From Firmicutes bacterium HGW-Firmicutes-9 (GTDB lineage: Bacteria; Bacillota; Clostridia; Christensenellales; CAG-138), in the NCBI GenBank assembly GCA_002841395.1, contig PGZM01000001.1, positions 298,089 through 362,088 on the forward strand: 64,000 bases of DNA, read 5' to 3'. Position numbers and translations under genes: made by a program. The notes below the pieces were generated by a model, which made no database searches, was not told where the DNA came from, and saw only the letters and a program-made list of their open reading frames with translations. Positions 1,880 to 17,626 of this stretch are shown here, piece by piece. Each line of letters begins with the position of its first letter. Within the stretch, counting starts at the first letter, position 1.

Positions 1880-1995
1880 AGACATAAGATTTCAATGGTA
1901 ATTCAAATTTCGATCACAGGCTTGCTGCAGATATTCGGGATATGTATCAGTACAAGTGTGTGGCGGAAATGAAAATAAAAGGAGGATGTATAAGA

Positions 1996-3156
1996 ATGAA
2001 AAAGGTTCTGGTATTCCTGATGGTTGCTTTGATGATGCTTTCCGTGGCATGTGCAAAGCCCGCCGCCCCTGCCGCTGACTCCAATGCTGCGGCACCCGCA
2101 GAACCCGCTGCAACTACCGAAGCAGCGACGGAAACAACCGAAGCAGCTGCCCCCGTGGATGGTGCTATCACACTTGGTTCCGGCTATTCAATCATGACAA
2201 CCGTGAAGCTGCTGGGCATCGGCTGGTTCGACAGAACCGAGACTATGGTCAGAGAGTTTGCTGAGAACACCGGCAACAACACCTATCAGACTGGTCCGTC
2301 TGAAGTCGATGCGGCTGCCACCAACCAGCTCCTCGAAGACGCGATTGCAACTGGTGTCAACGCCATCTGCATTATCCCGTTCTCGCCGTCTTCCGCGGAT
2401 TCCGTTCTCGCGAAAGCCAGAGAACAGGGCATCGTCGTCATCAGCCACGAAGCAACCGACCAGGTTGAGTGCGACTACGATCTCGAAGCGTTCGATAACT
2501 TTGCATACGGTGCAATCCTGATGGATTACCTGGCAAAGGGCATGGGCGAACAGGGTGAGTATTACACCACGGTTGGCGGTCTGACAGCTACTTCCCAGAA
2601 TCAGTGGGAAGAAGGCGGATTCAATCAGCAGCAGGCAAAGTACCCGAATATGACGGCTGTTGAGAGAAAGATCGAGACCAACGACGCACAGGCCAAGTCC
2701 AAGTCGATCATGGCTGAAATGATCAACAAGTATCCCGAACTCAAGGGCTTCCAGGGCGCAACCTCGCAGGATGCTCCTGGCGCAGCAGAAGCCGTTTCCG
2801 AAGCCGGCCTGATCGGCAAGATCACCGTCGTCGGTACTTCCATGCCGTCAATCGCTTCAAAGCAGCTCGAAGAAGGTTCGCTGTTTGCGATGGCTCTCTG
2901 GGATCCGGGCCTCACCGTGTATGCAATGCAGACACTGGCGGTCATGATGCTTGATGGCAACGGCGCGCTCATCAACGAAAACCTCGACCTGTCCAAGGCT
3001 TCCGGCTATGAAGGCGGCCTCGCGGGTTATGAGAAGTTGTCGTTCACAGATGGCGCTGGCGATGGCAAGATCATCTTTGCAAACGCGACGTTGGTTATCG
3101 ACAGCGTTGAGAAGATGAACGAGTACAAAGATGCAAGCGGTAACTTCTACCTGTAA
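1996..3156 (+). CDS. Sugar ABC transporter substrate-binding lipoprotein (type I periplasmic-binding fold, RbsB/LsrB-like)
   Basis: ATG at 1996 is preceded by AAAGGAGGA. Signal peptide plus lipobox MKKVLVFLMVALMMLSVAC, followed by an Ala/Pro/Thr/Glu-rich linker. PBP-like segments VNAICIIPFS and GIVVISHEA. The track start at 1942 has no RBS. Confidence 0.8.
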   Translation: MKKVLVFLMVALMMLSVACAKPAAPAADSNAAAPAEPAATTEAATETTEAAAPVDGAITLGSGYSIMTTVKLLGIGWFDRTETMVREFAENTGNNTYQTGPSEVDAAATNQLLEDAIATGVNAICIIPFSPSSADSVLAKAREQGIVVISHEATDQVECDYDLEAFDNFAYGAILMDYLAKGMGEQGEYYTTVGGLTATSQNQWEEGGFNQQQAKYPNMTAVERKIETNDAQAKSKSIMAEMINKYPELKGFQGATSQDAPGAAEAVSEAGLIGKITVVGTSMPSIASKQLEEGSLFAMALWDPGLTVYAMQTLAVMMLDGNGALINENLDLSKASGYEGGLAGYEKLSFTDGAGDGKIIFANATLVIDSVEKMNEYKDASGNFYL

Positions 3157-3225
3157 GAACGAAATCCGAATCAATATCCCGAAAAGTTAAACTTGCGGCG
3201 AATGTCCAAATAGATGGAAATCTGT

Positions 3226-3249
3226 GGAGGTGATCGCAAGATCACCTCC
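3226..3249 (+). other. Strong GC hairpin in the SBP-ATPase intergenic region (possible mRNA stabiliser/partial terminator)
   Basis: ggaggtgatc-gcaa-gatcacctcc forms a perfect 10-bp stem with no T-run after it. This is a typical position for differential SBP expression. Confidence 0.35.
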
Positions 3250-3401
3250 CGCCGCGCGTCAGTAGAGGAACAAAAATGTACCATTCGTCCATTACAATGA
3301 TATAATCAAAGAAATCACATTTCTTTTTATCATTGTTGGTACGGCTCATCATAGGATATGGTACAAATCATTACAAATCTTGTACAAGGAAGGTTGCGAC
3401 T

Positions 3402-4889
3402 ATGTCGGATGTTATCCTTCGCGCGATCAATATCAACAAATCTTTTGCCGGAGTGCATGCTCTGACGGATGTAAACCTAACCATTCGCAAGGGTGAAGTC
3501 CGCTGCCTCATCGGCGAGAATGGCTGCGGGAAATCAACGCTAATTAAGGTTATCTCTGGAGTATATACTCCAGATTCAGGTGAGCTTGAAGTAGCAGGGC
3601 ATAAATTCGGAAAATTACAGCCGGATCAGGCAATGAGTATGGGAATTCAAGTAATCTATCAGGATTTCTCGATTTTTCCGAACCTGACGGTTGCGGATAA
3701 TATTGCCATGAATACATTTCGCGTCCAAAAGAAAAAGTTGATCAATTGGCGGACGATCCGCAGAAAAGCACAGGAAGCGCTGGATCACCTTGACGTAAAA
3801 ATTGATCTTGACGTCAAGGCGGAGGCTCTCTCGGTTGCAGATAAGCAAATCGTTGCGATTTGCCGAGCCATCATTCAGGATGCCAAGCTCATCATTATGG
3901 ATGAGCCGACAACAGCGTTGACGAAAAAGGAAGTTTCCTCGCTGCTGGACATTATTCGGCAGCTGAAAGAGGAAGGGATTTCCGTTATCTTCGTAACGCA
4001 TAAACTCGAGGAAGTTATCGGCGTTACTGATACAGTCACCATTCTACGAAACGGCGTTTGCGTGGTCGACGGCGAGGAAACCTCGAACTTTGATGCCAAC
4101 AAGCTCGCTTTCTACATGACGGGGCATGAAATCGTAGATGAGAAATTTGTGCCTGAGATTACAAATGGCAAAGAGCTTTTGAGGATAGAGAAACTTTCTC
4201 TCAAGGATGGATTCAACGACATTACGCTTACAGTCAATAGCGGAGACGTTCTTGGCGTCACCGGACTGCTTGGTTCGGGAAGAACGGAACTGGCGCAGTG
4301 CCTTTTCGGTCAATTCCCCGCAACCTCAGGCGAGATTTTTATTGAAGGAAAACCGGTAAAAATCCGGAGCGTAAAAGATGCGATTAGGAACGGTATCGGA
4401 TATGTGCCCGAAGATCGTTTGACAGAAGGCTTGTTTTTAAAGAAATCGATTGCAAGCAATATCTTCGTCAGCGTAATTGAGAAGTTCCGAAAAGCACTCG
4501 TTTTTTCCGATAATCGCTCGCTAAAGGCGACAGCCGATCGATGGGTCAAAGAGCTCTTGATCAAAACACCGGATTCGGAGAATATCATAACGACGCTTTC
4601 GGGCGGCAACCAACAGCGTGTCGTGCTTGCCAAATGGCTGGCTCGTAATCCCAAAATCCTGATTTTGAATGGACCGACCGTAGGCGTTGATATCGGGTCG
4701 AAGCTCGAGATTCATAAGGTTCTTCGTAAACTTGCGAATCAGGGTATCGCCATCATTATCATCTCGGATGACATACCGGAAGTGTTAACGAACTGCAACA
4801 AGGTTGTCATTATGAAGATGGGACGCATCGTCGGTGAGATGGATTCCAAAGTGGTTAAGCACGAGCAACTTGCGGGTATGCTTGCATAA
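3402..4889 (+). CDS. Sugar ABC transporter ATP-binding protein, tandem ABC domains (RbsA/MglA/LsrA type)
   Basis: ATG at 3402 follows AAGGAAGG. Walker A GENGCGKST in the first half, a degenerate second Walker A (GLLGSGRTE), and signature LSGGNQQRV. Confidence 0.9.
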   Translation: MSDVILRAININKSFAGVHALTDVNLTIRKGEVRCLIGENGCGKSTLIKVISGVYTPDSGELEVAGHKFGKLQPDQAMSMGIQVIYQDFSIFPNLTVADNIAMNTFRVQKKKLINWRTIRRKAQEALDHLDVKIDLDVKAEALSVADKQIVAICRAIIQDAKLIIMDEPTTALTKKEVSSLLDIIRQLKEEGISVIFVTHKLEEVIGVTDTVTILRNGVCVVDGEETSNFDANKLAFYMTGHEIVDEKFVPEITNGKELLRIEKLSLKDGFNDITLTVNSGDVLGVTGLLGSGRTELAQCLFGQFPATSGEIFIEGKPVKIRSVKDAIRNGIGYVPEDRLTEGLFLKKSIASNIFVSVIEKFRKALVFSDNRSLKATADRWVKELLIKTPDSENIITTLSGGNQQRVVLAKWLARNPKILILNGPTVGVDIGSKLEIHKVLRKLANQGIAIIIISDDIPEVLTNCNKVVIMKMGRIVGEMDSKVVKHEQLAGMLA

Positions 4890-4920
4890 TGTGGAAAATA
4901 CACAGAAAGGATCAAAATCA

Positions 4921-5955
4921 ATGATTGGAAAAAAGCTCAGCAGGATCGCAAAAACGAATGAGTTTTTTGTCTTGCTTGTTATTCTCGTTGTATTTTTTAC
5001 AGTCAGCGCAATCAGCCCGGTCTTTTTATCCGCATACAGTCTTGTTTCGGTCATAAAGACAGCAATAGAGCCGATTATCTATGCGGTTGGAGCATATCTC
5101 GTCATTCTTTCCGGCGGGATCGATCTTACCGTTGCGGGCATCGGTGCGTTTTCGATGTTCACGGCAACAAAGATTGTTTTCAGCATGAACTACGAAGGCT
5201 CCGCGCTATTGCCCTATCTGCTGGCAATTGGGTTCGGCGCTGCGCTGGGAATGATCAACGGGCTTCTGATTTCGCGGCTGAAGATTCAGCCTATGATCGC
5301 GACTCTCGGCATGAACAGTATAATCAACGGCGTAATGCTGTTTTTTATCGGTTCTCGTGAGATTTCTCAGGTTCCAATTGGGATTCAAACCGCCGGGAAG
5401 ACATATGTCATGACCGTATATAATGCAAACGGTGTAGCGGCGCCTCTTTCTACCACGATTTATATAACGATTGCAGTCGTATTCGTGGTGTATCTATTAC
5501 TAAGGTATACGATGCTTGGCGCGAACATTTTTGCAATAGGAGGTAATGTAGAGTCTGCCATGCGCGCAGGAATCGACGTGAAGAAAACACAGTTCATCGT
5601 ATATGTGCTCGCCGGCATGCTCTATGGTCTCGGCGGTATGGTGCACACGATTACCTACGTCAACAGCAACCCGATGGACCTACTGGGCCAGGAGATGATC
5701 ACGATTGCCGCGGTCATAATCGGCGGCGCTCGCATTACGGGTGGTCACGGAACGCTGACAGGTACGGTACTTGGCGTACTGTTGATACAGCTGATCGATA
5801 ACTGTCTGAACACGGTTGGTATTCCGAGCTTCTGGCAGAGACTCGTTGTCGGTCTCGTACTCTTGGTTGGTACAAGTTTAACATCTTATCAGGCGCTGAA
5901 AGAGAAGAGAAGGCTCCACGTAGAAATCTCGTCGGCACCTATTTCGATGCAGTAA
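4921..5955 (+). CDS. Sugar ABC transporter permease (RbsC/LsrC-like)
   Basis: ATG at 4921 follows AAAGGATCAAAATCA. Polytopic membrane protein with GGIDLTVAG and GGARITGGHGT motifs of the ribose-type permease family. Confidence 0.85.
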   Translation: MIGKKLSRIAKTNEFFVLLVILVVFFTVSAISPVFLSAYSLVSVIKTAIEPIIYAVGAYLVILSGGIDLTVAGIGAFSMFTATKIVFSMNYEGSALLPYLLAIGFGAALGMINGLLISRLKIQPMIATLGMNSIINGVMLFFIGSREISQVPIGIQTAGKTYVMTVYNANGVAAPLSTTIYITIAVVFVVYLLLRYTMLGANIFAIGGNVESAMRAGIDVKKTQFIVYVLAGMLYGLGGMVHTITYVNSNPMDLLGQEMITIAAVIIGGARITGGHGTLTGTVLGVLLIQLIDNCLNTVGIPSFWQRLVVGLVLLVGTSLTSYQALKEKRRLHVEISSAPISMQ

Positions 5956-5965
5956 GGAGTTGGAT

Positions 5966-7021
5966 ATGGAAATGAATCGGACAAAGAAGAGTTCCTGGTT
6001 ATACCATATCTTTTATGAGACAAAGCTCGGTTGGCTGTTTTCGCTAATGGTCATCGCTTATGTAGGTATGGGTTTCATGTCGTTTGCGCTGAAGGGGAAC
6101 TTCAAGTATTTCTCCCCGAACACGTTGCAGACGATGGCCGGGCAGATCCCGGAAGTCGGTATTCTGGCAATTGGCATTATTCTGCCAATGATCACCGGCG
6201 GCATCGATTTATCGATGGTTGGAAAGGCGAATCTTGCTGGCGTAGTTGCGGCAGCGTTTATGACATCCGTCATTACGGAAACCACGCCGGATAGCACGCA
6301 GATGCTCATTGCCATTGCAGCAATCTTGCTTGCGCTGGTCGTCGGTGCGCTCGCCGGTTTGATCAATGGCATAATCATCAGCAAATTCAACGCGCCGCCT
6401 TTGATTGTAACGCTTGGCAGCAATTACGCATTCATGGGCATTGCCGTGGTCATTACGCAAGGCAAGTCAATTGTCGGCTTACCGGCGGCATTTAACAGCC
6501 TAGGACAAGGATACACGTTAGGCATTATTCCAAACCAATTTGTGGTTCTTGCGATTGTGGCCACGGTGATTTGGTTTATGACATCCAAAACTCCTTACGG
6601 CACGAAACTGTTCATGACTGGTTCCAACATGGTTGCCGCGGAGTTCTCGGGCATTGATATCAAGAAACTTCTGCGCACGACTTACACAATCTCAGGCGTA
6701 CTTGCAGCGATCTCGGGTTGCATCCTCTTCGGCCGCTCGAATCAAGCGAATGCCGACTATGGTACGACATATACCCTGCAGGCGATCATGATCGCTGTGC
6801 TTGGCGGAACCAGCCCGGAAGGCGGCGAAGGCAACGTTTTAGGCGTGATCTTCGCGATGTTTACCATGCAGTTCCTGGCGACAGGCATGAACTTCTTCCA
6901 GGTAACAAACGTAACTTACCTCAAAGACATCGTTTGGGGCGGCGTGCTGCTGATCGTTATGGTCGTGAACTATGTTACCGCATTGCGTCGGACCAAGAAC
7001 GCTTTGAAAAAGTCTTTCTAA
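5966..7021 (+). CDS. Sugar ABC transporter permease, second subunit (RbsC/LsrD-like)
   Basis: ATG at 5966 lies 7 nt after AAGGAG (the track uses TTG at 5960). Motifs GGIDLSMVG and GGTSPEGGEGN; polytopic. Confidence 0.85.
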   Translation: MEMNRTKKSSWLYHIFYETKLGWLFSLMVIAYVGMGFMSFALKGNFKYFSPNTLQTMAGQIPEVGILAIGIILPMITGGIDLSMVGKANLAGVVAAAFMTSVITETTPDSTQMLIAIAAILLALVVGALAGLINGIIISKFNAPPLIVTLGSNYAFMGIAVVITQGKSIVGLPAAFNSLGQGYTLGIIPNQFVVLAIVATVIWFMTSKTPYGTKLFMTGSNMVAAEFSGIDIKKLLRTTYTISGVLAAISGCILFGRSNQANADYGTTYTLQAIMIAVLGGTSPEGGEGNVLGVIFAMFTMQFLATGMNFFQVTNVTYLKDIVWGGVLLIVMVVNYVTALRRTKNALKKSF

Positions 7022-7131: not shown

Positions 7132-7398
7132 ATGAAACAAGCATTGGGCATGGTCGAGACGAAAGGCCTGGTTGGGGCAATCGAAGCGGCAGATGCTATG
7201 GTGAAAGCGGCAAATGTAACGTTGCTCGGAAAAGAGAAGATTGGCAGCGGCCTCGTTACCGTCATGGTTCGGGGAGATGTAGGCGCCGTGAAAGCCGCAG
7301 TTGAAGCGGGTTCAGCGGCGGCAAAACGTGTGGGCGATGTCGTATCGATCCATGTAATTCCGAGCCCGCACGACGACGTGGAGAAAATACTGCCGTAA
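7132..7398 (+). CDS. BMC-H shell protein (PduA/EutM-type hexamer), paralog 1
   Basis: [57 protein letters not shown] is the canonical Pfam00936-type BMC domain. RBS AAAGGAGCAAGGT. Confidence 0.95.
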
Positions 7399-7425
7399 CG
7401 GAAGATGTCAGATAGGAGCTTGAAT

Positions 7426-8247
7426 ATGGATATCAATGAAATCATAAAAACGATCACGGAGCAGGTCATAGCCGAGATCAACAAGAGTGGTTGCTCCACA
7501 GCGCCGGAAGGCAAGACCAACTACGCAAGGTACATCGACCACACGCTGCTCAAGCCGGATGCAACGGAAGCGAAGATCAAGAAGGTGTGCGACGAAGCGA
7601 AGCAATACAACTTTGCGAGTGTCTGCGTGAATCCTTCCTACATTGCATTTGTGGCAAAAGAGCTCAAAGGAAGCCCCGTCAACCCCTGCGTTGTCATTGG
7701 GTTCCCGCTTGGTGCAACAACACCCGCGGTGAAGGCTTTTGAAACAAATGATGTCATCGAAAAAGGCGCAAAAGAGGTCGATATGGTGCTCAACATCGGC
7801 GCTGCAAAATCCGGTAACTGGGCGCTAGTGGAAGAGGACATCAAGGCGGTGGTGCATGCGTCACGCGGGCGCGCGCTGGTCAAGGTTATCCTTGAAACTT
7901 GCTTGCTGACGGATGAGGAAAAGGTAAAGGCCTGCACAATCAGCAAACTCGCCGGAGCGGACTTTGTGAAAACATCAACGGGCTTTTCCACCGGTGGCGC
8001 GACGGTAGAGGACGTGAAACTCATGCGCGCGACGGTCGGCCCGCAGATGGGCGTGAAAGCGTCCGGAGCAGTGCGCGACTATGAAACCGCGAAGAAGATG
8101 ATTGAGGCTGGAGCAACCCGTCTTGGCACGAGTTCAGGCGTTGACATCGTATCGGGGAAAACAGAGAATCACGAGTGCGTAAACTGCGGTAAGTGTACTG
8201 TAAACTGCCCGACGGGCAATGTCTCTGTGAACAAAGGCGTATATTAA
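7426..8247 (+). CDS. deoC: Deoxyribose-phosphate aldolase paralog 1 with N-terminal encapsulation-peptide-like helix and C-terminal CxxCxxCxxxCP tail
   Basis: DERA core motifs: [38 protein letters not shown] (Schiff-base Lys context) and [11 protein letters not shown]-terminal [21 protein letters not shown]-terminal [19 protein letters not shown] at 7426 has AGGAG 7 nt upstream; the alternative ATG at 7405 lacks an RBS. Confidence 0.9.
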
Positions 8248-8266
8248 AAATCGGAGGAGTAAGCAT

Positions 8267-8536
8267 ATGCAAGAAGCATTAGGAATGGTTGAAACAAAGG
8301 GACTTGTTGGCGCAATCGAAGCGGCTGACGCAATGGTCAAGGCGGCGAATGTCACGTTGATCGGTAAAGAGAATATCGGTTCCGGTCTGGTGACCGTAAT
8401 GGTTCGCGGTGATGTCGGCGCAGTAAAAGCATCTGTCGAGGCCGGCGCTGCAGCAGCCAAGCGTGTTGGCGAACTGTATTCGGTGCATGTCATTCCGCGC
8501 CCGCATGCGGATGTGGAAAACATCCTGCCCAAATAA
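8267..8536 (+). CDS. BMC-H shell protein, paralog 2
   Basis: [54 protein letters not shown]; RBS GGAGGAGTAAGCAT. Confidence 0.95.
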
Positions 8537-8580
8537 CGTAGATCGCGCAAGAGAACAAATATGAATTAGAGGTGCTGCAG

Positions 8581-9228
8581 ATGATGGAGTCGGAAGTCAA
8601 ACGTCAGGTGACGCTTCGTATGCTCAAAGAGTACGCGGCAAAATCGGTCTATTATGTTCCGGCAGCGGTATCAAACCGGCATATCCATTTGTCGCAGGAT
8701 GCGCTGGAAGCTCTTTTTGGCAAAGGATACACGCTCGAGCAATTTAAGCCGTTATCGCAGCCGAATCAGTACGCCTGCGAAGAGAAGTTAACATTTGTGG
8801 GTCCGAAGAACAAGATGGATGGCATTCGGATACTCGGACCTGTTCGTTCGGCTACGCAGATTGAGTTTTCCTTAACTGATGCATTCTACTTAGGAATTCC
8901 TCCGGTTGTACGCATGTCCGGCGATTTGAAAGATACTCCCGGCGGCAAACTGATCGGTCCAAACGGAGAGTATATGCTCACTAGTGGGGTTATTATTTCC
9001 CAGTGCCACCTGCATGCGTCCAAGGAGGAAGCAGCATGGTATGGACTGAAAGACGGAGATTCCGTTTGTGTTCGAAAGCGCGGTTTGCGGACTGTCTTGT
9101 TTGAGAATGTACTGGTACGCGCGGGAGATACGCATAGTCTGGAGCTTCATTTTGATACAGACGAAGCGAATTCGGCGTTGATTGAAAACAGCGATTTGTT
9201 AGAGGTCGTTCGGAGCTGGGAGATATGA
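8581..9228 (+). CDS. pduL: Phosphate acyltransferase PduL (BMC-associated phosphotransacylase)
   Basis: Two PduL repeat signatures: AVSNRHIHLSQDALEALFG and ISQCHLHASKEEAAWYGLKDGD. ATG at 8581 lies 6 nt after AGAGGTG (the track uses GTG at 8572). The N-terminal segment ESEVKRQVTLRMLKEYAAK is amphipathic. Confidence 0.9.
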   Translation: MMESEVKRQVTLRMLKEYAAKSVYYVPAAVSNRHIHLSQDALEALFGKGYTLEQFKPLSQPNQYACEEKLTFVGPKNKMDGIRILGPVRSATQIEFSLTDAFYLGIPPVVRMSGDLKDTPGGKLIGPNGEYMLTSGVIISQCHLHASKEEAAWYGLKDGDSVCVRKRGLRTVLFENVLVRAGDTHSLELHFDTDEANSALIENSDLLEVVRSWEI

Positions 9229-9911
9229 TTGACGAAGCGCAAATAAGGGAAATCATTCGCCGGGTAACAGAGCGCGTTCTGGATCGATTGATGGCGGAAG
9301 GACTCTTCCTGCCGGAGCAGAACGGGGCGCTTGTTCTCGTGTCGAATTTTATCCCTGAACCGGCGCTGCTTAACAAATATCTCAAAAGCCGTTTCACAAC
9401 CGGGGTAACTTGCGCTGCGCTTGAGCTATATACCAGACTGGATCCGGAGTTTGACGCAGTTTTCGCAGCTCGAGTGGATGAGCAGCAACGATTGTTCTCT
9501 ACGCTTAAATTCTATGAACACATCGTGCTCGCCATGCCGTCGATGCAACTGCTGAACAGGATAGCAATCGGCGATGACAGCGGATTTACGGAACAGCTGG
9601 TGCTGCGCGCAATTCTAATGCGAAAGAAAGTGACGGTGGTGCTGGACTACCAGCCGCCGAAGTTTAAGCGCGGCACCTTTTTTGAGGGCGTCGTGAACTC
9701 CATTACGGCGCTGAAGGACATGGGGGCGGAGATTGTTTCACTAACGCCTGTGCTCAGATCTGCTGATCTTGTCTGTGAGCTGGTGACGGAAGACACGATA
9801 CTACGGGCGTATTTATGCGGAGATCGAAGCATTCAATGCACAAAAGGGACCATTGTTACACCTTTGGCCAAAGATAAGGCAAACGAACTCGGCATTGCGA
9901 TCGAAGGATAG
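9225..9911 (+). CDS. BMC-associated protein of unknown function (flavoprotein/HFCD-like core suspected; EP-like N-terminus)
   Basis: ATGA overlap with the pduL stop. N-terminal MIDEAQIREIIRRVTERVLDRLMAEG. The core LAMPSMQLLNRIAIGDDSGFTEQLVLRAILMRKKVTVVLD resembles flavoprotein-family loops. C-terminal TIVTPLAKDKANELGIAIEG resembles a short module seen on BMC-linked adenosyltransferases. Function not assignable from sequence. Confidence 0.6.
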   Translation: MIDEAQIREIIRRVTERVLDRLMAEGLFLPEQNGALVLVSNFIPEPALLNKYLKSRFTTGVTCAALELYTRLDPEFDAVFAARVDEQQRLFSTLKFYEHIVLAMPSMQLLNRIAIGDDSGFTEQLVLRAILMRKKVTVVLDYQPPKFKRGTFFEGVVNSITALKDMGAEIVSLTPVLRSADLVCELVTEDTILRAYLCGDRSIQCTKGTIVTPLAKDKANELGIAIEG

Positions 9912-9920
9912 GAGAAAACC

Positions 9921-10226
9921 ATGATTCTAGCGCGTGTAAGAGGTAACGTTGTCAGCACAAATAAAGCGGAAAAACTGCTTGGATTAAAGTTGCTGATTGT
10001 CGTTCCAATCGATATTGAGACCTTTCAGGAGAAAGGGCAACCGCTCGTTGCCATCGACACGGTGGGGGCTGGCGAGAATGAGGTTGTCATGTGCGTTGGT
10101 GGCAGTTCATCGCGACAAACATCGATTACGGATGGAAAGCCTTCCGATCTGGCGATTATTGCGATCATCGACTCCGTCGAGCTGCGCGGGGATATCGTTT
10201 TTAGAAAATACGAGCAGAAGGAATGA
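9921..10226 (+). CDS. BMC-P vertex pentamer (EutN/CcmL/PduN family), paralog 1
   Basis: MILARVRGNVVSTNKAEKLLGLKLLIVVPID...AIDTVGAGENEVVMCVGGSSSR; RBS AGGAGAAAACC. Confidence 0.9.
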   Translation: MILARVRGNVVSTNKAEKLLGLKLLIVVPIDIETFQEKGQPLVAIDTVGAGENEVVMCVGGSSSRQTSITDGKPSDLAIIAIIDSVELRGDIVFRKYEQKE

Positions 10227-10322
10227 TCTGCGCGCTGTCGCATAACCGCAACCGACCTTCGGCCTGCATTTTGCATGCGATTTTGCAGGCGGCCGGAGTA
10301 GCAAGGACAGGGAGTGATTTAA

Positions 10323-11729
10323 ATGAGTTTATCGGATGAGCAAATTCGAATGATAATTGAGGATACGGTCAAGCAGATTTCCGGCATCGGCAGCGGCGTG
10401 AGCACTGCTCCGACCTGCTGGCTCTGCGACGACCCGGAAAGCGCGATCCAGGCCGCTAAAGCCTCGCAGGAACAGCTGATGAAGTTATCTCTTGAAGAGC
10501 GCGGCAGACTGATCGAATCCATGCGTATAGCCGCTCGCGAACAGGTCAACTACCTCTCTGAGCTTGCGCATAAGGAGACGGGATATGGCAAGGTCGCGGA
10601 CAAAATTAAGAAAAATCTTTTAGCGATTAATAAAACCCCTGGCATAGAGGACTTACCGACGAGCGCCATGAGCGGCGACTTCGGTCTTACCATTGTGGAA
10701 TGCGCTCCGTTTGGTGTTATCGGGTCGATCACACCTTCCACAAACCCGACATCCAGCGTGATCAACAATTCTATCAGCATGATCGCTGCTGGAAATGCGG
10801 TTGTTTACAACCCGCACCCCGCGGCGAAACAAGCGTCGATCGAGACGATGCGCATCCTAAACGAAGCCATCGTAAAGGCTGGGGGACCGCCGGCGCTGAT
10901 CTGCACGGTTAAGAACCCAACGCTGGAAACGGGCAAATATATCATGGAACATCCGGATATTCCGCTACTGTCCATTACTGGCGGCGAAGCGGTGGTGAAG
11001 GTTGCGATGAAGACGGGAAAGAAAGTTATCGCCGCGGGCCCAGGCAATCCGCCAGTCATCGTGGACGATTCGGCAGATATCAAAAAAGCCGCTCAGGATA
11101 TCGTAGACGGGGCGAGCTTTGATAACAACGTGCTCTGCATTGCTGAGAAGGAGGTTTTCGCCATTTCAGAAATTGCGGAACCGCTCATGCGCCATATGGA
11201 ACTGAACGGCGCGTATCGTCTGACGGGATCAGATGTAGAGAAGGTTGTCAAGACGGTCTTAATACACGAGAACGGTAAATACGTGGTCAATCGCAAGTTT
11301 GTTGGCCGCGATGCGACATATATCGCCAGCGAAAGCGGCGTGAACTACACGGGCAACCCAAGGTTGCTCATCGCCAGTGTGGAGGAAAACCACCCGTTTG
11401 TCACGGTCGAGATGCTAATGCCGGTGCTCGGTGTCGTTCAGGTGTACACGATTGAAGAAGCAATATCAAAGGCAATCAAGGCAGAGAACGGCTGCAAGCA
11501 CACGGCCATGATCCACTCTCAGAATGTAACGCATCTGACCATGGCGGCAAAAGCGATGAACACCACGATTTTCGTCAAGAACGCACCATCCTATGCGGGA
11601 CTCGGATTCAACGGCGAGGGGTTCACGACACTAACCATCGCGACCCCGACCGGCGAGGGACTGACGAGCGCGAGAACGTTTACCCGCTCGCGCAGGTGTG
11701 TTCTGTATGGCAACTTGAGGATCGTGTAA
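10323..11729 (+). CDS. CoA-acylating aldehyde dehydrogenase (PduP/EutE family) with N-terminal encapsulation peptide
   Basis: N-terminal MSLSDEQIRMIIEDTVKQISGIG. Catalytic Cys context FDNNVLCIAEKEV. Length of 468 aa is typical of BMC AldDH. Confidence 0.9.
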   Translation: MSLSDEQIRMIIEDTVKQISGIGSGVSTAPTCWLCDDPESAIQAAKASQEQLMKLSLEERGRLIESMRIAAREQVNYLSELAHKETGYGKVADKIKKNLLAINKTPGIEDLPTSAMSGDFGLTIVECAPFGVIGSITPSTNPTSSVINNSISMIAAGNAVVYNPHPAAKQASIETMRILNEAIVKAGGPPALICTVKNPTLETGKYIMEHPDIPLLSITGGEAVVKVAMKTGKKVIAAGPGNPPVIVDDSADIKKAAQDIVDGASFDNNVLCIAEKEVFAISEIAEPLMRHMELNGAYRLTGSDVEKVVKTVLIHENGKYVVNRKFVGRDATYIASESGVNYTGNPRLLIASVEENHPFVTVEMLMPVLGVVQVYTIEEAISKAIKAENGCKHTAMIHSQNVTHLTMAAKAMNTTIFVKNAPSYAGLGFNGEGFTTLTIATPTGEGLTSARTFTRSRRCVLYGNLRIV

Positions 11730-11744
11730 CACGGAGGATGAAGC

Positions 11745-13082
11745 ATGGGTGTTGTAGAACAAATCCGTGACGCAGGCGTCGTTGGTGCTGGCGGAGCGGG
11801 TTTCCCGACACATATCAAAGCAGGCGGCAAGGCGGAAATCGTTCTGGCAAATGGTGCCGAATGTGAGCCGCTGCTGCGCGTCGACCGCCTGATGATGCAG
11901 CATTATCCGCAGCAGGTTGTTCGCGGGCTCAAGGCGATCATGGAGTCAACCGGCGCAGGCAGTGGTGTCATCTGCCTGAAAAAGAAGTATCACGACGCGA
12001 TCGATGCGCTGGAACAGGCGATCTCCGGGGAACCGAATATCCGTCTGTTTGAGATGGAGAGCTATTATCCCGCAGGTGACGAGCAACAAATGGTCTACGA
12101 GGTCACGGGCAAGGTAGTGCCGACCGGCGGCATACCGCTGGATGTTGGTGCGGTGGTCTGCAACGTCAGTACATTGATCAATATCGCCAACGCGATGGAC
12201 GGTCAACCCGTGATCGACAAGGTAGTTACTGTAGGCGGCGAGGTGAAGCGGCCGGTCACGTTGAGAGTACCGATCGGCACCCCGATCCGGCTTCTGGTGG
12301 AAGCAGCGCAGGGGCCGAAAAGCCTTGATGGATACACGATCGTAATCGGCGGACCTGCGACGGGGAAACTCTGTAACGATTGGGACGAGCCGGTCACGAA
12401 AACGACCGGCGGAGTATTGGTGTTTCCGTCTGATCACCCGTTGATTCAGAAGAAAACGGACCAGAAGGAAGTGGACTGGAAGCTCGCCAAAGCGGTCTGC
12501 TGCCAATGCAACATTTGCACGCAGATTTGTCCGCGCAATAACCTCGGCCTCGGCGTAGAGCCGCACAAGGCGATGCGCGCTGCGTTTATGTCCAACGGGA
12601 AACTGCTCGGCGATTACAACGGAATCTTCTCCTGCTGCGACTGCGGGCTCTGCAGTTATTATGCCTGCAACTTCGGGCTCAGCCCGAGCCGCATGATGGC
12701 GCGCATGAAAGCGGGTCTGCGCCAGAATGGCGTAAAGCCGGAGAAGCGGATTCGCACCAGCGTATCCCAGAGCCTCGAGTGCACCAAGGTTCCGACCAAG
12801 CGGCTGATGTCTCGCATGGGGATTCTACAGTACGACACGGAAACACCGCTGGACGAGCAGGGCGTATCCGTTTCGATCGTACAAATTCCATTGAGCATGC
12901 ATATCGGTGCGCCGTCGATCTCGGTGGTCAAATACGGGGATCGGGTAGCAAAGGGCCAATTAATCGCAGAGATTCCGGAGAAGAGCTTGGGCGCGCGGAT
13001 TCACGCAAGCATCGGTGGAATCGTAACAAACATCACAAACAACATGATAGAGATATCAGCGCAGAAGCGGGATAAGGAGTAG
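11745..13082 (+). CDS. PduS-like NAD(H)-binding Fe-S flavoprotein (RnfC/SLBB-type)
   Basis: GVVGAGGAGFPTHIK (NADH/FMN-binding Complex1_51K-like). Two Cys clusters, CCQCNICTQICPRN and CCDCGLCSYYACNFG. C-terminal barrel-sandwich-like region. Confidence 0.85.
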   Translation: MGVVEQIRDAGVVGAGGAGFPTHIKAGGKAEIVLANGAECEPLLRVDRLMMQHYPQQVVRGLKAIMESTGAGSGVICLKKKYHDAIDALEQAISGEPNIRLFEMESYYPAGDEQQMVYEVTGKVVPTGGIPLDVGAVVCNVSTLINIANAMDGQPVIDKVVTVGGEVKRPVTLRVPIGTPIRLLVEAAQGPKSLDGYTIVIGGPATGKLCNDWDEPVTKTTGGVLVFPSDHPLIQKKTDQKEVDWKLAKAVCCQCNICTQICPRNNLGLGVEPHKAMRAAFMSNGKLLGDYNGIFSCCDCGLCSYYACNFGLSPSRMMARMKAGLRQNGVKPEKRIRTSVSQSLECTKVPTKRLMSRMGILQYDTETPLDEQGVSVSIVQIPLSMHIGAPSISVVKYGDRVAKGQLIAEIPEKSLGARIHASIGGIVTNITNNMIEISAQKRDKE

Positions 13083-13086
13083 GGTC

Positions 13087-13632
13087 TTGAACGCATTAGG
13101 CATGATTGAAACAAACAGCATTCCGGCGGGGATTGAAGCCGGGGATGCGATGCTCAAAGCGGCCGATGTCACGCTGGCAAGCGCTCAGCCGGTCTGCGCG
13201 GGCAAATATATCGTGATCGTCTCCGGCGGCGTTGCGGCGGTGGATGCTGCGGTAGCGGCGGGCGTTGCAACCGCGGCTGAGGTGCTGGTGGATAGCATCG
13301 TGATTCCAAATGTACACGAACAGGTGATTCAGGCCATCGGTGCTTGCTCGGAAGTGTTTTCAACCGGCGCGCTGGGACTGATCGAGACGTTTTCGCTCGC
13401 TTCCGCGGTGATTTGCGCTGATACGGCGGTCAAGGCCGCAAACGTGAATCTCATCGAGATTCGGCTCGGGCGCGGGCTTGGCGGCAAGTCGTTTATCACG
13501 ATGATCGGCGAGGTTTCCGCGGTGCGCTTTGCAGTAGAGTCGGCGGAAAAACTCGAGGAAACAAAAGGAATGGTCGCGCGGACGGTGGTCATCCCGTCAC
13601 CGCATCCAGATATTTTACAGACAATCTTTTAA
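13087..13632 (+). CDS. BMC-T tandem-domain shell protein, PduT-like
   Basis: Two BMC domains: ALGMIETNSIPAGIEAGDAMLKAADV and ALGLIETFSLASAVICADTAVKAANV. Cys37 (QPVCAGK) sits at the position of the PduT pore [4Fe-4S] ligand. TTG start at 13087 (alternative ATG at 13102). Confidence 0.85.
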   Translation: MNALGMIETNSIPAGIEAGDAMLKAADVTLASAQPVCAGKYIVIVSGGVAAVDAAVAAGVATAAEVLVDSIVIPNVHEQVIQAIGACSEVFSTGALGLIETFSLASAVICADTAVKAANVNLIEIRLGRGLGGKSFITMIGEVSAVRFAVESAEKLEETKGMVARTVVIPSPHPDILQTIF

Positions 13633-13659
13633 CCGTTACGCAGAGACAAGGAGAAGAAT

Positions 13660-13983
13660 ATGGAAAAACAAGCACTTGGTCTGGTGGAAACCAAAGGTCT
13701 TGTCGGCGCGATTGAAGCCGCTGACGCGATGGTAAAGGCAGCAAACGTTACGTTGATCGGTAAAGAGAACATTGGCTCAGGCTTGGTCACCGTGATGGTT
13801 CGCGGCGATGTCGGGGCGGTGAAGGCAGCCGTGGAAGCGGGTTCCGCGGCGGCAAAGCGTGTCGGCGAGCTCGTCAGCTCGCATGTGATCCCTCGTCCGC
13901 ACGACGAGGTGGAGGGAATCCTTCCGCAACAGGCTGCCACGACAGAGAAACCGCAGGCAAAAAAAGCGACTGTAAAGAAATAA
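13660..13983 (+). CDS. BMC-H shell protein, paralog 3, with Lys-rich C-terminal tail
   Basis: Canonical BMC-H core plus an extra tail, [18 protein letters not shown]. Confidence 0.95.
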
Positions 13984-14019
13984 GTTTGGTACTGGCGGAT
14001 CGAAAGGGGTGAACCCATC

Positions 14020-14286
14020 ATGTACACCGGAATAGTTGTCGGTTCGGTCGTATCGACAGCAAAGGACGAGAAGCTGCAAGGGATAAAGTTGCTCGTTGTA
14101 CAGATGATCGAAAACGGAAAACCAACCAAACTCATCGTTGCCGCGGACCAGACAAGACAGGCCGGACAGGATGATTTTGTGTACCTGATTGGCTCGAAAG
14201 AGGCCTCGCTCATCTTTCGGGGCGGATTGGTCCCTGCAGATGCGGCGATCGTTGGATTTGTAGATCAATATAACGAATATATTTAA
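14020..14286 (+). CDS. BMC-P vertex pentamer, paralog 2
   Basis: MYTGIVVGSVVSTAKDEKLQGIKLLVVQMIENGKPTKLIVAADQTRQAGQDDFVYL. Confidence 0.9.
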   Translation: MYTGIVVGSVVSTAKDEKLQGIKLLVVQMIENGKPTKLIVAADQTRQAGQDDFVYLIGSKEASLIFRGGLVPADAAIVGFVDQYNEYI

Positions 14287-14304
14287 TAGTAAGGAGAATG
14301 CACA

Positions 14305-14577
14305 ATGGAAAAGCAAGCATTGGGAATGGTGGAAACCAAGGGCCTCGTAGGCGCGATCGAAGCCGCAGACGCAATGGTAAAGGCTGCGAACGTCACGCTC
14401 ATCGGTAAGGAAAAGATCGGCTCGGGTCTCGTGACCGTGATGGTACGCGGGGATGTCGGTGCGGTGAAAGCATCTGTTGAGGCTGGCGCCGCTGCAGCAA
14501 AACGCGTTGGAGAGCTGTACTCTGTCCATGTGATTCCGCGCCCGCATGAAGATGTGGAAGGTATTCTACCGAAATAA
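14305..14577 (+). CDS. BMC-H shell protein, paralog 4
   Basis: [55 protein letters not shown]; RBS AAGGAGAATGCACA. Confidence 0.95.
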
Positions 14578-14640
14578 CTTGCATAGACGGGAACCAGTAC
14601 ATCGTTTTATGAACGAGAACAGGATCGGAGATGCCACAAA

Positions 14641-14931
14641 TTGAGGATTGCTAGAGTAGTTGGCAATGTAGTTTCAACAATCAAGGACAGAAAGTTTCAT
14701 GGGCACAAACTCATGATTGTTGAGTTTGTCGATTTGAACGGAAACCCGATCGAATCGCGCCAGATCGCCTTTGACGCTGCGAACGCGGGCGTAGGTGATC
14801 TTGTGCTGGTCAATGTGGATGGCGGTGCGACAAAGATGTTTTTCAACGACGATGAACTGATTGCCGACTGGACAATCTGCGGTGTTTTGGATCATTACTC
14901 AATCGATGGCGTAACGATACGCAAACCGTAA
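14641..14931 (+). CDS. BMC-P vertex pentamer, paralog 3
   Basis: TTG start. MRIARVVGNVVSTIKDRKFHGHKLMIVEFVDLNGNP...AFDAANAGVGDLVLVNVDGGA. Confidence 0.85.
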   Translation: MRIARVVGNVVSTIKDRKFHGHKLMIVEFVDLNGNPIESRQIAFDAANAGVGDLVLVNVDGGATKMFFNDDELIADWTICGVLDHYSIDGVTIRKP

Positions 14932-14950
14932 CAGACAGAGGTGAAGACAC

Positions 14951-15718
14951 TTGGATATTGAAGCGATCGTGGCGAAAGTCACGCAAGAGGTATATGCGCG
15001 CCTTGCGCCTGCCGAGCTGGCTGAAGGCGCAAAACCCGCACGGGCGAGAATGCTCACCGGCATGGAGCTGGCAGGCTCGTTGGAGCACTCGCTGCTAAAC
15101 CCGGACACATCCACTGATAAGATCAAGCAGGGCTGCGAGGAAGCGAAGAAATTTGGCTTTGTGAACGTCTGCGTTTCACCTTACTTTGTCAGTCTGGCAA
15201 AAGAGCGGCTGGGTGGATGCAACGTTGGTATCTGTGTGCCCGTTGGATTTCCGCACGGCGCGGCATCTACAAAGGCGAAGTGCGCGGAGATTCGAGAGGC
15301 GATTCTAAACGGAGCAACCGAGCTGGATGTATCGCTGCAGATCGTTGCGATCAAGTCCGGCGACTACGACGCGGTGGAAAAAGATTTGGCGGAGATGATC
15401 TCCGTCGCGGGCGGACGAGCGAAGGTCAAGGCAATCTATGAGCAGGGGCTTTTGACGGACGAAGAGAAGCTGAGGACGCTTGCGATTATTCAAAGAAGCT
15501 GTGCCGATTACGTGAAGATATCCAACGCATTGACCGGAGCGAAAGCGTGCATGAACGACGTCAAATTCGTGCGCTCTATCGTTGGCCTGGGGATAGGCAT
15601 TAAGATTGACGGCGGGATCAAGGACGCAAAGACCGCTTCCATCTTGCTGGGTTCGGGTGCAAATCGCCTCGGATGCAGCGCGTCGGTGCAGATTGTGACC
15701 ATACCGGCTGAACCGTAA
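14951..15718 (+). CDS. deoC: Deoxyribose-phosphate aldolase paralog 2 (divergent active-site context) with N-terminal encapsulation-peptide-like helix
   Basis: TTG start 7 nt after AGAGGTGA. N-terminal MDIEAIVAKVTQEVYARLAP. DERA-like LEHSLLNPDTS and VPVGFPHG. The Schiff-base region reads YVKISNALTGAKA and the second Lys region GIKIDGGIKD, both divergent from paralogs 1 and 3. Confidence 0.8.
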   Translation: MDIEAIVAKVTQEVYARLAPAELAEGAKPARARMLTGMELAGSLEHSLLNPDTSTDKIKQGCEEAKKFGFVNVCVSPYFVSLAKERLGGCNVGICVPVGFPHGAASTKAKCAEIREAILNGATELDVSLQIVAIKSGDYDAVEKDLAEMISVAGGRAKVKAIYEQGLLTDEEKLRTLAIIQRSCADYVKISNALTGAKACMNDVKFVRSIVGLGIGIKIDGGIKDAKTASILLGSGANRLGCSASVQIVTIPAEP

Positions 15719-15826
15719 GTAACGTTTTTAACGGTTGTCGCTGGATGCGTCGCCCTTTTTGGCGTTGCTTCTTAGGTGAATGCAGGCAGGAGTTTATTTG
15801 AGCGCTACCTACAGGAGAGTATTGCT

Positions 15827-16399
15827 ATGAAAATGGTCAAAGATAAGAAACTTGCCATCGGCGCGGATTTTGCCGGATATCCATTGAAGGAGGCGGTCGT
15901 TGCGCACCTGAAAAAGAAGGGGTGGGAGATCGAAGATGTCGGCGTAACGGATTTATCCGTAGACAGCGATGAGAATATGTTTCATCGGGTTGGGTTGCGC
16001 CTTGGAGCGAAGATATCGGAAGGCGAATATGAACGTGCGTTGGCATTCTGTGGGACTGGCATGGGGATTCACATCGCGGCATCAAAGTGTCCGCGCGTCC
16101 ATGCGGGCGTTGTGGAGAGTGTTCCAGCAGCATTGCGCGCCATCACAGGCAATGGCGTAAATGTACTGGCGATGGGTGCATTTTACGTTGCGCCAAAGAT
16201 GGGTTGCGACATTGCCGATGTATATCTGAACGCCTCTTTGGGCAGCGGGTATGAATGGTGGACGAACTTCTATGAGTTCCATAAGTTGGCGATCGATGAA
16301 CTTGATGCCTTCGACTACGAGACGTATAAAGCAAATGGATTTAAACTAAAATACCTTGGTAACTATCCAATCAAACTTGAAGTAAAACCCGAAGATTAA
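15827..16399 (+). CDS. RpiB/LacA/LacB-family sugar-phosphate isomerase with about 45-aa C-terminal extension
   Basis: ATG at 15827 follows AGGAGAG. Motifs LAIGADFAGYPLKE and AFCGTGMGIHIAASK (catalytic Cys context). Extra C-terminal segment WWTNFYEFHKLAIDELDAFDYETYKANGFKLKYL... Confidence 0.8.
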   Translation: MKMVKDKKLAIGADFAGYPLKEAVVAHLKKKGWEIEDVGVTDLSVDSDENMFHRVGLRLGAKISEGEYERALAFCGTGMGIHIAASKCPRVHAGVVESVPAALRAITGNGVNVLAMGAFYVAPKMGCDIADVYLNASLGSGYEWWTNFYEFHKLAIDELDAFDYETYKANGFKLKYLGNYPIKLEVKPED

Positions 16400-16579: not shown

Positions 16580-17626
16580 ATGTCTCGTATTCAAGAGATA
16601 GCTTCGAAAGCGAACGTATCAATCTCAACGGTTTCCAGGGTCTTCAATAATTCCGGCTATGTAGCGGAAGACAAGAGGACTGCTGTTCTTGATGCAGCAA
16701 AACAGCTGGGATACAAGATACCAAAGAAAACCAAGGGTGAATACGATAAGATGGTTAGCGATGTGGTCGGCATTGTGGTGCCGGATATCAACAACCCTTT
16801 CTTCAGCGAGTCCATAAAAGGCATGATGAAGGTTATGCGCGAGAACGATATTCATAGTTTAATTTGCGATACGGATGAAAGTCCTGAAATAGAAATTCGA
16901 TCGTTGCAAACTCTTCGTCGGCAAAAGGTGGGGGGACTTATCATTACACCGGTATCAAGCGCAGTGGAGTATAACGCAGAGTATCTTAGGGAATTCAACA
17001 ATCTCGGCATGCCTATTGTGTTGCTAGACCGCGACATTAAGTTTTCCGGTTTTGACGGTGTTTTTCTTGATAGTTTTCGCGGAACATTGGATGCTGTTCA
17101 GACACTGATTAATAACGGGCATACGGAGATTGCAATAATTGCAGGCCTGATCACATCAAAACCTGGTTTGGATCGCCTGGAAGGGTATCTGGAAGCGCTG
17201 CGACAGAACAATATCCCCATCAAGGAAGAGTATATCCTCTACGGCAACTTCAAACAGGACAAAGCATACGACTTAACATCGAAACTACTCGAAACAAAAA
17301 AAGAAGTCACCGCAATTTTCTCTTCGAACAACCTGATGTCCGTTGGCTGTTTTGAGGCGATTAACAATAAAGGATTAAAAATCCCGGATGACATTTCGCT
17401 TATCTCGTTTGACGATTTCTATTTCTTTGGCGCGGGCAATATCAACATCAGCGCTGTGTTACGCCCGACAATGCAGATGGGCGTTGAAGCTGCGATGCTT
17501 CTTGTTGACCAAATCAAGTCGAAGAGAAGACCGAAAGATCAAATGTCAAAGCGAATCATTCTCTCGCCACATCTCCTTTTGCGAGGTTCGGAGAAGTACC
17601 CGACCAATCGGTTGCCGAAACCGTAG
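16580..17626 (+). CDS. LacI-family transcriptional regulator
   Basis: HTH MSRIQEIASKANVSISTVSRVFNNSGYV followed by a periplasmic-binding-like effector domain. RBS GAAGGAG. Confidence 0.9.
   Translation: MSRIQEIASKANVSISTVSRVFNNSGYVAEDKRTAVLDAAKQLGYKIPKKTKGEYDKMVSDVVGIVVPDINNPFFSESIKGMMKVMRENDIHSLICDTDESPEIEIRSLQTLRRQKVGGLIITPVSSAVEYNAEYLREFNNLGMPIVLLDRDIKFSGFDGVFLDSFRGTLDAVQTLINNGHTEIAIIAGLITSKPGLDRLEGYLEALRQNNIPIKEEYILYGNFKQDKAYDLTSKLLETKKEVTAIFSSNNLMSVGCFEAINNKGLKIPDDISLISFDDFYFFGAGNINISAVLRPTMQMGVEAAMLLVDQIKSKRRPKDQMSKRIILSPHLLLRGSEKYPTNRLPKP

Follow-up and report, generated by a model that had tools for sequence, protein, structure and literature searches.

Gene X of an SPU4-type microcompartment operon, a PduM-related protein and candidate core–shell adaptor

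The gene that starts within the stop codon of pduL in this operon, here called gene X, is, by profile comparison, a long-form relative of the microcompartment protein PduM. We consider it fairly probable that its product is a structural PduM-superfamily adaptor without enzymatic activity, which links core and shell in an SPU4-type bacterial microcompartment (BMC). X scores below the thresholds of PF15953, TIGR04493 and TIGR02536, hence the link to PduM rests on profile–profile comparison together with synteny. In the literature searched, we found no report of this link, of the loss of FMN motifs described below or of a truncation series that retains helix and module.

A conserved gene within an SPU4-type operon

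The window, that is, the whole 64,000-nucleotide stretch of DNA analysed, contains the operon and the gene X neighbourhood as follows.

7132..16399, + strand: SPU4-type microcompartment operon (Pfam scans, ORF map, paralogue sequences and the SPU4 description in Supplementary Data 2 of Sutter et al. 2021)
8572..9228, + strand: PduL-type phosphotransacylase (PTAC), the 5' neighbour of gene X (PF06130, E = 1e-66)
9225..9228, + strand: ATGA start/stop overlap of pduL and gene X (read from the sequence; 9 of 25 related loci share this -4 overlap)
9225..9911 including the stop codon, + strand: gene X, PduM-superfamily (eut_hyp-like) microcompartment protein (ORF, translation, homologues, hhalign to PduM)
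9921..10226, + strand: BMC-P pentamer (EutN/PduN-like), the 3' neighbour, 9 nt past the gene X stop (PF03319, E = 1e-26)

The gene order is BMC-H, DERA-1, BMC-H, PduL, X, BMC-P, AldDH, PduS-like, BMC-T, BMC-H, BMC-P, BMC-H, BMC-P, DERA-2 and RpiB, where DERA is DeoC and the PduS-like product is of the Fe–S flavoprotein type. Of the shell genes, a BMC-H occupies 7132-7398 and BMC-T 13087-13632. The operon is flanked upstream by a sugar ABC transporter and downstream by a LacI regulator. In gene content the operon matches the SPU4 subtype of sugar-phosphate-utilisation microcompartment (Sutter et al. 2021), with DeoC (PF01791), RpiB (PF02502), AldDH, PTAC, a BMC-P triplet and an eut_hyp-type protein, all in a member of the Firmicutes; EutN-like ORFs number three. 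The PF00121 isomerase (TPI) is also listed among SPU4 components, with its presence in every locus not stated (Sutter et al. 2021), and no such gene was seen within 7132-16399.

Gene X encodes 228 amino acids and begins with an ATG (9225-9227) that shares bases with the TGA of the PF06130 PduL/PTAC gene, as an earlier sequence-only reading had described; the peptide segments quoted there are all present in the translation. That this is a genuine gene, no chance ORF, is shown by 48 homologous clusters (33–98% identity, 22 invariant columns) and by 499 representatives, the majority 200–250 aa long and matched end to end, which a profile search of a library of 1.84 billion representative proteins gave at E<=1e-3. 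Pfam and NCBIfam scans bore out the statement that X has no P-loop, cupin or catalytic family. Its description as unassigned held in part, in that no Pfam or NCBIfam model is matched at its cut-off. The protein type, however, is already listed for SPU4 loci in the 2021 BMC catalogue, hence the component itself is known, though uncharacterised. The catalogue describes the eut_hyp-type protein of SPU4 loci as carrying an encapsulation peptide (EP) and as “related to pfam02441” (Sutter et al. 2021), and this description fits X. Gene X also corresponds to the eut_hyp description, a BMC-operon protein of ~200 aa with a C-terminal ITPxAxDxAxELGI module; our literature search of main texts returned no paper containing “TIGR02536”. 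The suggestion that X is locus-specific had to be given up, as it is part of a broad superfamily together with PduM and the TIGR02536 eut_hyp proteins.

A survey of 185,579 species genomes recovered 46 related loci. The order PduL-X-BMC-P(-BMC-P)-AldDH-PduS-BMC-T is kept in 27 of these, mostly from Christensenellaceae and other Bacillota MAGs, and the loci closest to the present operon come from Clostridia/Christensenellaceae MAGs. The distance from pduL stop to X start is at most 19 nt in all 25 related loci. Directly 5' of a BMC-P gene, typically 8–17 nt away, lies X or a 98-aa mini form of it in ~43 of the 46 loci. This adjacency spans SPU, Tissierella-type, RMM-like and archaeal loci; in the Tissierella-type loci X has three BMC-H genes on its 5' side and BMC-P on its 3' side, and three contigs binned as archaea have an X homologue in an SPU-like locus. 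The pduL-X-BMC-P order matches the pduL-pduM-pduN arrangement of the Salmonella pdu operon. In one representative protein, P0109, PduL is fused to X (PduL::X), and PduL together with its EP takes the place of the EP helix of X. Another candidate PduL-X fusion (locus L017) was rejected, since pduL there has its own stop.

Relationship to PduM and the conserved termini

An AlphaFold2 (AF2) model of X (pLDDT 81) consists of a helix, a weak linker, an alpha/beta body, a further linker and a small beta-alpha-beta-alpha-beta module. Together with conservation, this divides the gene into the following parts.

9225..9299, + strand: residues 1-25, N-terminal amphipathic helix, predicted encapsulation peptide (AF2, hydrophobic moment, PduM alignment)
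9300..9323, + strand: residues 26-33, linker of low conservation following the helix (pLDDT 58 for residues 21-30; variable, gapped columns)
9324..9740, + strand: residues 34-172, alpha/beta body with HFCD/UbiX-like fold and degenerate FMN motifs (Foldseek against the PDB, motif comparison, column statistics)
9741..9773, + strand: residues 173-183, linker modelled with low confidence, preceding the C-terminal module (pLDDT <50 at 178-181; variable columns)
9774..9908, + strand: residues 184-228, 45-aa module LVTE..V..A...G...I.....IVTPLAxDxAxELGI, predicted docking domain (column conservation, module HMM)

Gene X has no Pfam match to PF15953, and its NCBIfam matches are sub-threshold, both to PduM (TIGR04493, 14.3 bits against a cut-off of 50, over X 96-143) and to eut_hyp (TIGR02536, 16.6 bits against a 152.6-bit cut-off, covering the module only, X 185-224). 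These matches, and that to EutQ, are nonetheless not noise, because all 34 close homologues match TIGR02536 weakly (best E = 3e-7) and 17 of the 34 match the PduM model, as do 17 the EutQ N-terminus. Among more distant members, PF15953 was matched weakly by 13 of 134, and one relative (L038) aligns to TIGR02536 model positions 55-206 with E = 9e-11.

PduM sequences were collected from databases with a PduM probe sequence, which scored 247 bits on NF011957 and was used solely for this retrieval. A narrow profile of 34 X sequences matched the PduM alignment weakly (E = 1.7e-3, probability 15%); once broadened to 138 sequences (Neff 7.1) and compared with 15 PduMs, the profile gave an hhalign probability of 94.3% with E = 1e-7 over 160 columns, pairing X 2-228 with PduM 1-161. 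The observed score was 49.2, whereas 30 column-shuffled PduM profiles reached no more than 17.6 and the reversed profile 14.1. Helix (aligned alone to PduM 1-21, E = 8e-7), body (E = 1.4e-4) and C-terminal module (E = 3.7e-8) also match separately and in the same order. An equivalent of X residues ~35-85 is missing from PduM, whose model (pLDDT 91) has the same order of secondary-structure elements as X 99-228; that AF2 model gave no significant HFCD or other fold match.

The EP-like N-terminus noted from sequence agrees with several observations. AF2 places a helix at residues 4-24, the hydrophobic moment of 0.55 over residues 5-22 is similar to those of PduM and of the AldDH and DERA-1 N-termini from the same operon, and the segment it aligns with in PduM lies within residues 1-23, an experimentally proven signal sequence (PMC11463388). 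The helix is thus a putative encapsulation peptide.

The best-conserved columns of the 138-sequence alignment fall within the C-terminal module (L186 92%, E189 90%, T212 98%, A215 96%, D217 92%), and the seven columns L186, T188, E189, T212, P213, A215 and D217 are 86–98% conserved. This module matches positions 3-45 of the EutQ model (X 185-226), 112-153 of PduM and 163-202 of TIGR02536. In each locus a module HMM matched once, where the X homologue ends, and it also detected E. coli EutQ (2e-13, at residues 2-46 as annotated or 26-70 counted over the stop-to-stop ORF) and the C-terminus of a 515-aa class-III aminotransferase (3e-16) from L042, a Pseudomonadales RMM-like BMC locus. The same locus encodes, just upstream of BMC-P, a 98-aa ORF composed of amphipathic helix, linker and module only. 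Wherever the module occurs, a flexible linker separates it from the rest of the protein. It is a mobile, BMC-associated unit, and docking to the shell is its predicted function. The sequence-only reading had likened it to short domains of BMC-linked cobalamin adenosyltransferases; the carriers identified here are EutQ, PduM, eut_hyp-like proteins and an aminotransferase. Deletion of EutQ 1-100, a region which contains the module and is larger than it, abolishes binding of the shell hexamer EutM in vitro (Held et al. 2016, PMC4827028), and in pull-downs EutQ bound EutM, not EutN (PMC4827028). A module-profile search of the large protein library returned only 46–81-aa proteins and fragments and brought no domain architectures to light, and weak matches to Pfam E3_binding (PF02817, E = 0.008–0.2) were treated as resemblance only. 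With a full body in X, half of one in PduM and none in the 98-aa L042 protein, these proteins form a natural truncation series in which the body is dispensable and helix and module are constant.

An HFCD/UbiX-like body with degenerate FMN motifs

Searched against the PDB with Foldseek, the X model returned EpiD, UbiX, DmrB, PPC decarboxylase or AtHal3 as all of its top 28 matches (E = 3.2e-5 to 1.5e-3, target-normalised TM-scores 0.45–0.6), hence the earlier impression that the central segment resembles HFCD flavoproteins was right at the level of the fold. It did not carry over to the sequence, where the FMN motifs and catalytic His are not conserved and X has no Pfam match to PF02441. Only one of 134 relatives matched PF02441 at E<0.1 (E = 0.017) and none did so at threshold; the relative L030 reached 18.5 bits against a gathering score of 22.7. 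HMMER profiles of 34 and 134 sequences, run against PDB sequences, returned noise only and no HFCD chain. The hhalign comparison of X with a two-sequence alignment of E. coli Dfp and UbiX was likewise not significant (E = 0.12), and was used solely to register motifs.

In that register, the phosphate loop GVSGGIAAYK falls on LVSNFIPEPA of X, PATADL on P-SMQLL, which is one residue shorter and without the Asn/Asp, and PAMNQQMY on LDYQPPKF. Across the 138 sequences, neither the Gly/Ser-rich phosphate loop (G-S-G-G-I-A) after beta-1 nor the PASANT Asn, PxMNxxMW or the catalytic His is conserved. The family has motifs of its own in the body, namely P105, GDD116-118, LDY140-142 and PKFKRGTFFE, and the conserved P105, D118, D141 and G167 sit on the same loop crown. 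On these comparisons the body looks like a dead enzyme and X probably lacks flavin, though a ligand site of some kind may survive, given that P105, GDD and LDYxPPKFKRGTFFE sit on the FMN-binding loops of HFCD proteins. The sequence-only reading had offered X as a cofactor-handling or assembly factor; the assembly half of this proposal has gained, whereas the cofactor half is weakened by the unconserved FMN-binding motifs and catalytic His.

Candidate role and comparison with known systems

In Salmonella, deletion of pduM partly parts the core from the shell and gives enlarged or elongated compartments (PMC11463388; PMC9132943), and PduM localises with cargo, with no detectable association with shell assemblies (Yang et al., PMC9132943). 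The signal sequence of PduM, its localisation with cargo and the parting of core and shell on its loss are the reasons for reading X as a bivalent adaptor. X would be produced in low amounts from the tightly packed pduL-X-pentamer block, as a protein of three parts joined by flexible linkers. Acting as an encapsulation peptide, the N-terminal amphipathic helix would place X in the cargo core, while the body, HFCD/UbiX-derived and stripped of FMN-binding and catalytic residues, would be a scaffold or spacer, possibly oligomerising. The 45-aa module would be a tethered docking domain for shell proteins. Bound to core and shell at once, X could couple cargo to shell and affect compartment shape, as PduM does in Salmonella. 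The association of PduM with cargo but not detectably with shell fits an EP, and does not obviously fit a shell-docking module.

The fold of the body raises the alternative that X is a functional flavoprotein or cofactor-binding protein, holding FMN or a related nucleotide cofactor, which might serve redox balance with the PduS-like Fe–S flavoprotein and BMC-T or handle cofactors inside the compartment. We regard this as unlikely. The Foldseek matches to HFCD/UbiX proteins would suit it, as would the catalogue label “related to pfam02441”, the match of one Tissierella relative to Flavoprotein PF02441 (E = 1.6e-3), the placement of the subfamily’s conserved motifs on loops that form the HFCD FMN site and the PduS-like gene close downstream (X, BMC-P, AldDH, PduS-like). 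However, conservation across the 138 members is lacking for the phosphate loop, the PASANT Asn, PxMNxxMW and the catalytic His, PF02441 is not matched by X and is matched at E<0.1 by a single one of 134 members, and HMMER found no HFCD protein in the PDB. In PduM half of the body is gone and in the 98-aa L042 protein all of it, and both have nonetheless kept the genomic position.

Two further readings start from the neighbouring genes. The near-constant position of X or its mini form 5' of BMC-P, shared by pduM-pduN, would suit a dedicated partner of the BMC-P vertex protein, which might control how vertices are inserted, how the shell closes and how large the compartment grows; in this version of the adaptor model, module or body would bind BMC-P and not hexamers. 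The enlarged and elongated compartments of pduM deletants (PMC11463388, PMC9132943) and the low abundance of PduM, as expected of a vertex-associated factor, point the same way. Adjacency of genes is, however, no evidence of binding, and EutQ, which has the module, is not encoded beside eutN in E. coli and bound EutM instead of EutN, so we give this variant a low probability. From the other side, the overlap of the X start with the pduL stop, seen here as in 9 of 25 loci, the pduL-X order kept in 27 loci and the natural fusion P0109 could indicate an accessory subunit which stabilises, regulates or recruits the phosphotransacylase PduL, and no general core–shell adaptor. This we judge very improbable, since X homologues occur without an adjacent pduL in Tissierella-type, archaeal and RMM-like loci, the PduM phenotypes concern assembly and not PTAC activity, and the fusion is a single representative that may simply reuse the EP of PduL.

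The core–shell adaptor reading has a wider and more tentative extension, to which we would give somewhat less than an even chance. PduM, eut_hyp, X, the “~130-aa EutQ-like” protein of SPU6 and the 98-aa RMM-like protein might constitute one ancient adaptor superfamily of PDU, EUT2, SPU, RMM-like and archaeal loci, whose essentials would be the encapsulation helix and the 45-aa docking module. The module would then also be a portable targeting tag on EutQ and cargo enzymes, the body a repeatedly lost dead-enzyme spacer, and the pentamer-adjacent position may correspond to a vertex-linked role. The best-studied metabolosome does not assemble properly without PduM, yet according to a 2024 study neither a homologue outside Pdu compartments nor a mechanism is known for it (PMC11463388). 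Placing X, eut_hyp and PduM in one superfamily would provide a testable function for a component of hundreds of uncharacterised microcompartment loci, and would explain PduM as a truncated dead flavoprotein. The module is a candidate portable shell-docking tag that could serve cargo-loading engineering, and the placement also cautions against taking “flavoprotein” domains in such loci to be redox-active.

Among known systems, the HFCD/UbiX flavoproteins (EpiD, CoaC/Dfp, AtHal3, UbiX, DmrB; PF02441) share with X a Rossmann-like fold over 150–200 aligned Foldseek columns and the [KR]-[IV]-A-x-G scaffold motif after a conserved Pro; X differs in its additional EP helix and C-terminal module and shows no significant sequence match to them. 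In the N-terminal region of EutQ (~3-45) the 45-aa module recurs, again with a flexible linker behind it, but there it is N-terminal and joined to a cupin/acetate-kinase domain, whereas X has no cupin. The carboxysome proteins CcmN/CcmM, an analogy that Yang et al. (PMC9132943) drew for PduM, share with X, by analogy alone, the proposed logic of a low-copy multivalent protein that bridges cargo and shell, with no known relationship in sequence or fold. Closer are the eut_hyp proteins of Firmicute EUT2 operons and the eut_hyp-type proteins of SPU4 loci, which at ~205–250 aa combine an N-terminal EP with a flavoprotein-like body and carry the same module at the C-terminus, and whose gene follows the PTAC gene and precedes eutN; X is a distant sister family, outside the TIGR02536 equivalog. 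PduM (Salmonella/Klebsiella/Citrobacter; PF15953, TIGR04493) shows collinear three-part homology with X, comprising signal helix, body and C-terminal module, and its gene lies between PTAC (pduL) and pentamer (pduN) genes, as gene X does. X exceeds PduM by 65 residues and has retained the first beta-alpha-beta half of its alpha/beta domain, which is missing from PduM. It belongs to a sugar-phosphate and not a propanediol locus, and its model matches HFCD folds significantly where that of PduM does not.

Genes flanking and within the microcompartment operon

Sugar ABC transporter genes lie directly upstream of the SPU4-type bacterial microcompartment (BMC) operon and a LacI-family regulator gene lies directly downstream, an arrangement which suggests substrate-linked regulation of the operon.

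Window 1942-7021: genes that look, from their sequences, like a sugar ABC transporter with its binding protein, an ATPase and a pair of permeases
Window 7405-8247: DERA-1, first DeoC/DERA paralogue, with a C-terminal ferredoxin-type motif
Window 14951-15718: second DERA
Window 16580-17626: LacI-family regulator (PF00356 + PF00532)

The C-terminus of DERA-1 carries one 12-residue motif (residues 260-271) of the pattern CxxCxxCxxxCP, making this an aldolase with a putative Fe-S tail. The same tail is C-terminal on the orthologous DERA of 12 related loci, and is absent from the second DERA of the operon.

Domain combinations of the 228-aa PduM-like protein

Parts of the 228-aa protein (X) recur in other arrangements, including in L042, an RMM-like BMC locus from Pseudomonadales.

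L042:5221-5517 (-): 98-aa protein
L042:8600-10147 (+): class-III aminotransferase

The 98-aa protein consists solely of a helix resembling an encapsulation peptide, a linker and the C-terminal module of X, with a pentamer shell protein (BMC-P) gene just downstream; the same module terminates the aminotransferase. In P0109, a 412-aa protein from the representative search, PduL is fused within one polypeptide with the body and C-terminal module of X, whose N-terminal helix is lacking.

Repeated and archaeal loci

Three separate loci (L006, L007 and L020) in one Christensenellaceae genome (CAXXTQ010000001, 3.09-Mb) each contain a PduL-X-BMC-P-AldDH-PduS-BMC-T block. Because coordinate patterns of the conserved core (PduL to DeoC2) are identical in two of the three, a recent duplication is suggested for this pair.

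Homologues of X were also present in SPU-like loci on archaeal-binned contigs, from Undinarchaeota MAGs (L038, L041) and a Thermoplasmatota JASLWR01 MAG (L039). Archaeal SPU-like microcompartment loci were already reported in a 2025 preprint (PMC12747264), which also mentions Hodarchaeales ‘flavoprotein+DERA’ fusions, whose ‘flavoprotein’ part may be a candidate for the same degenerate domain as the X body.
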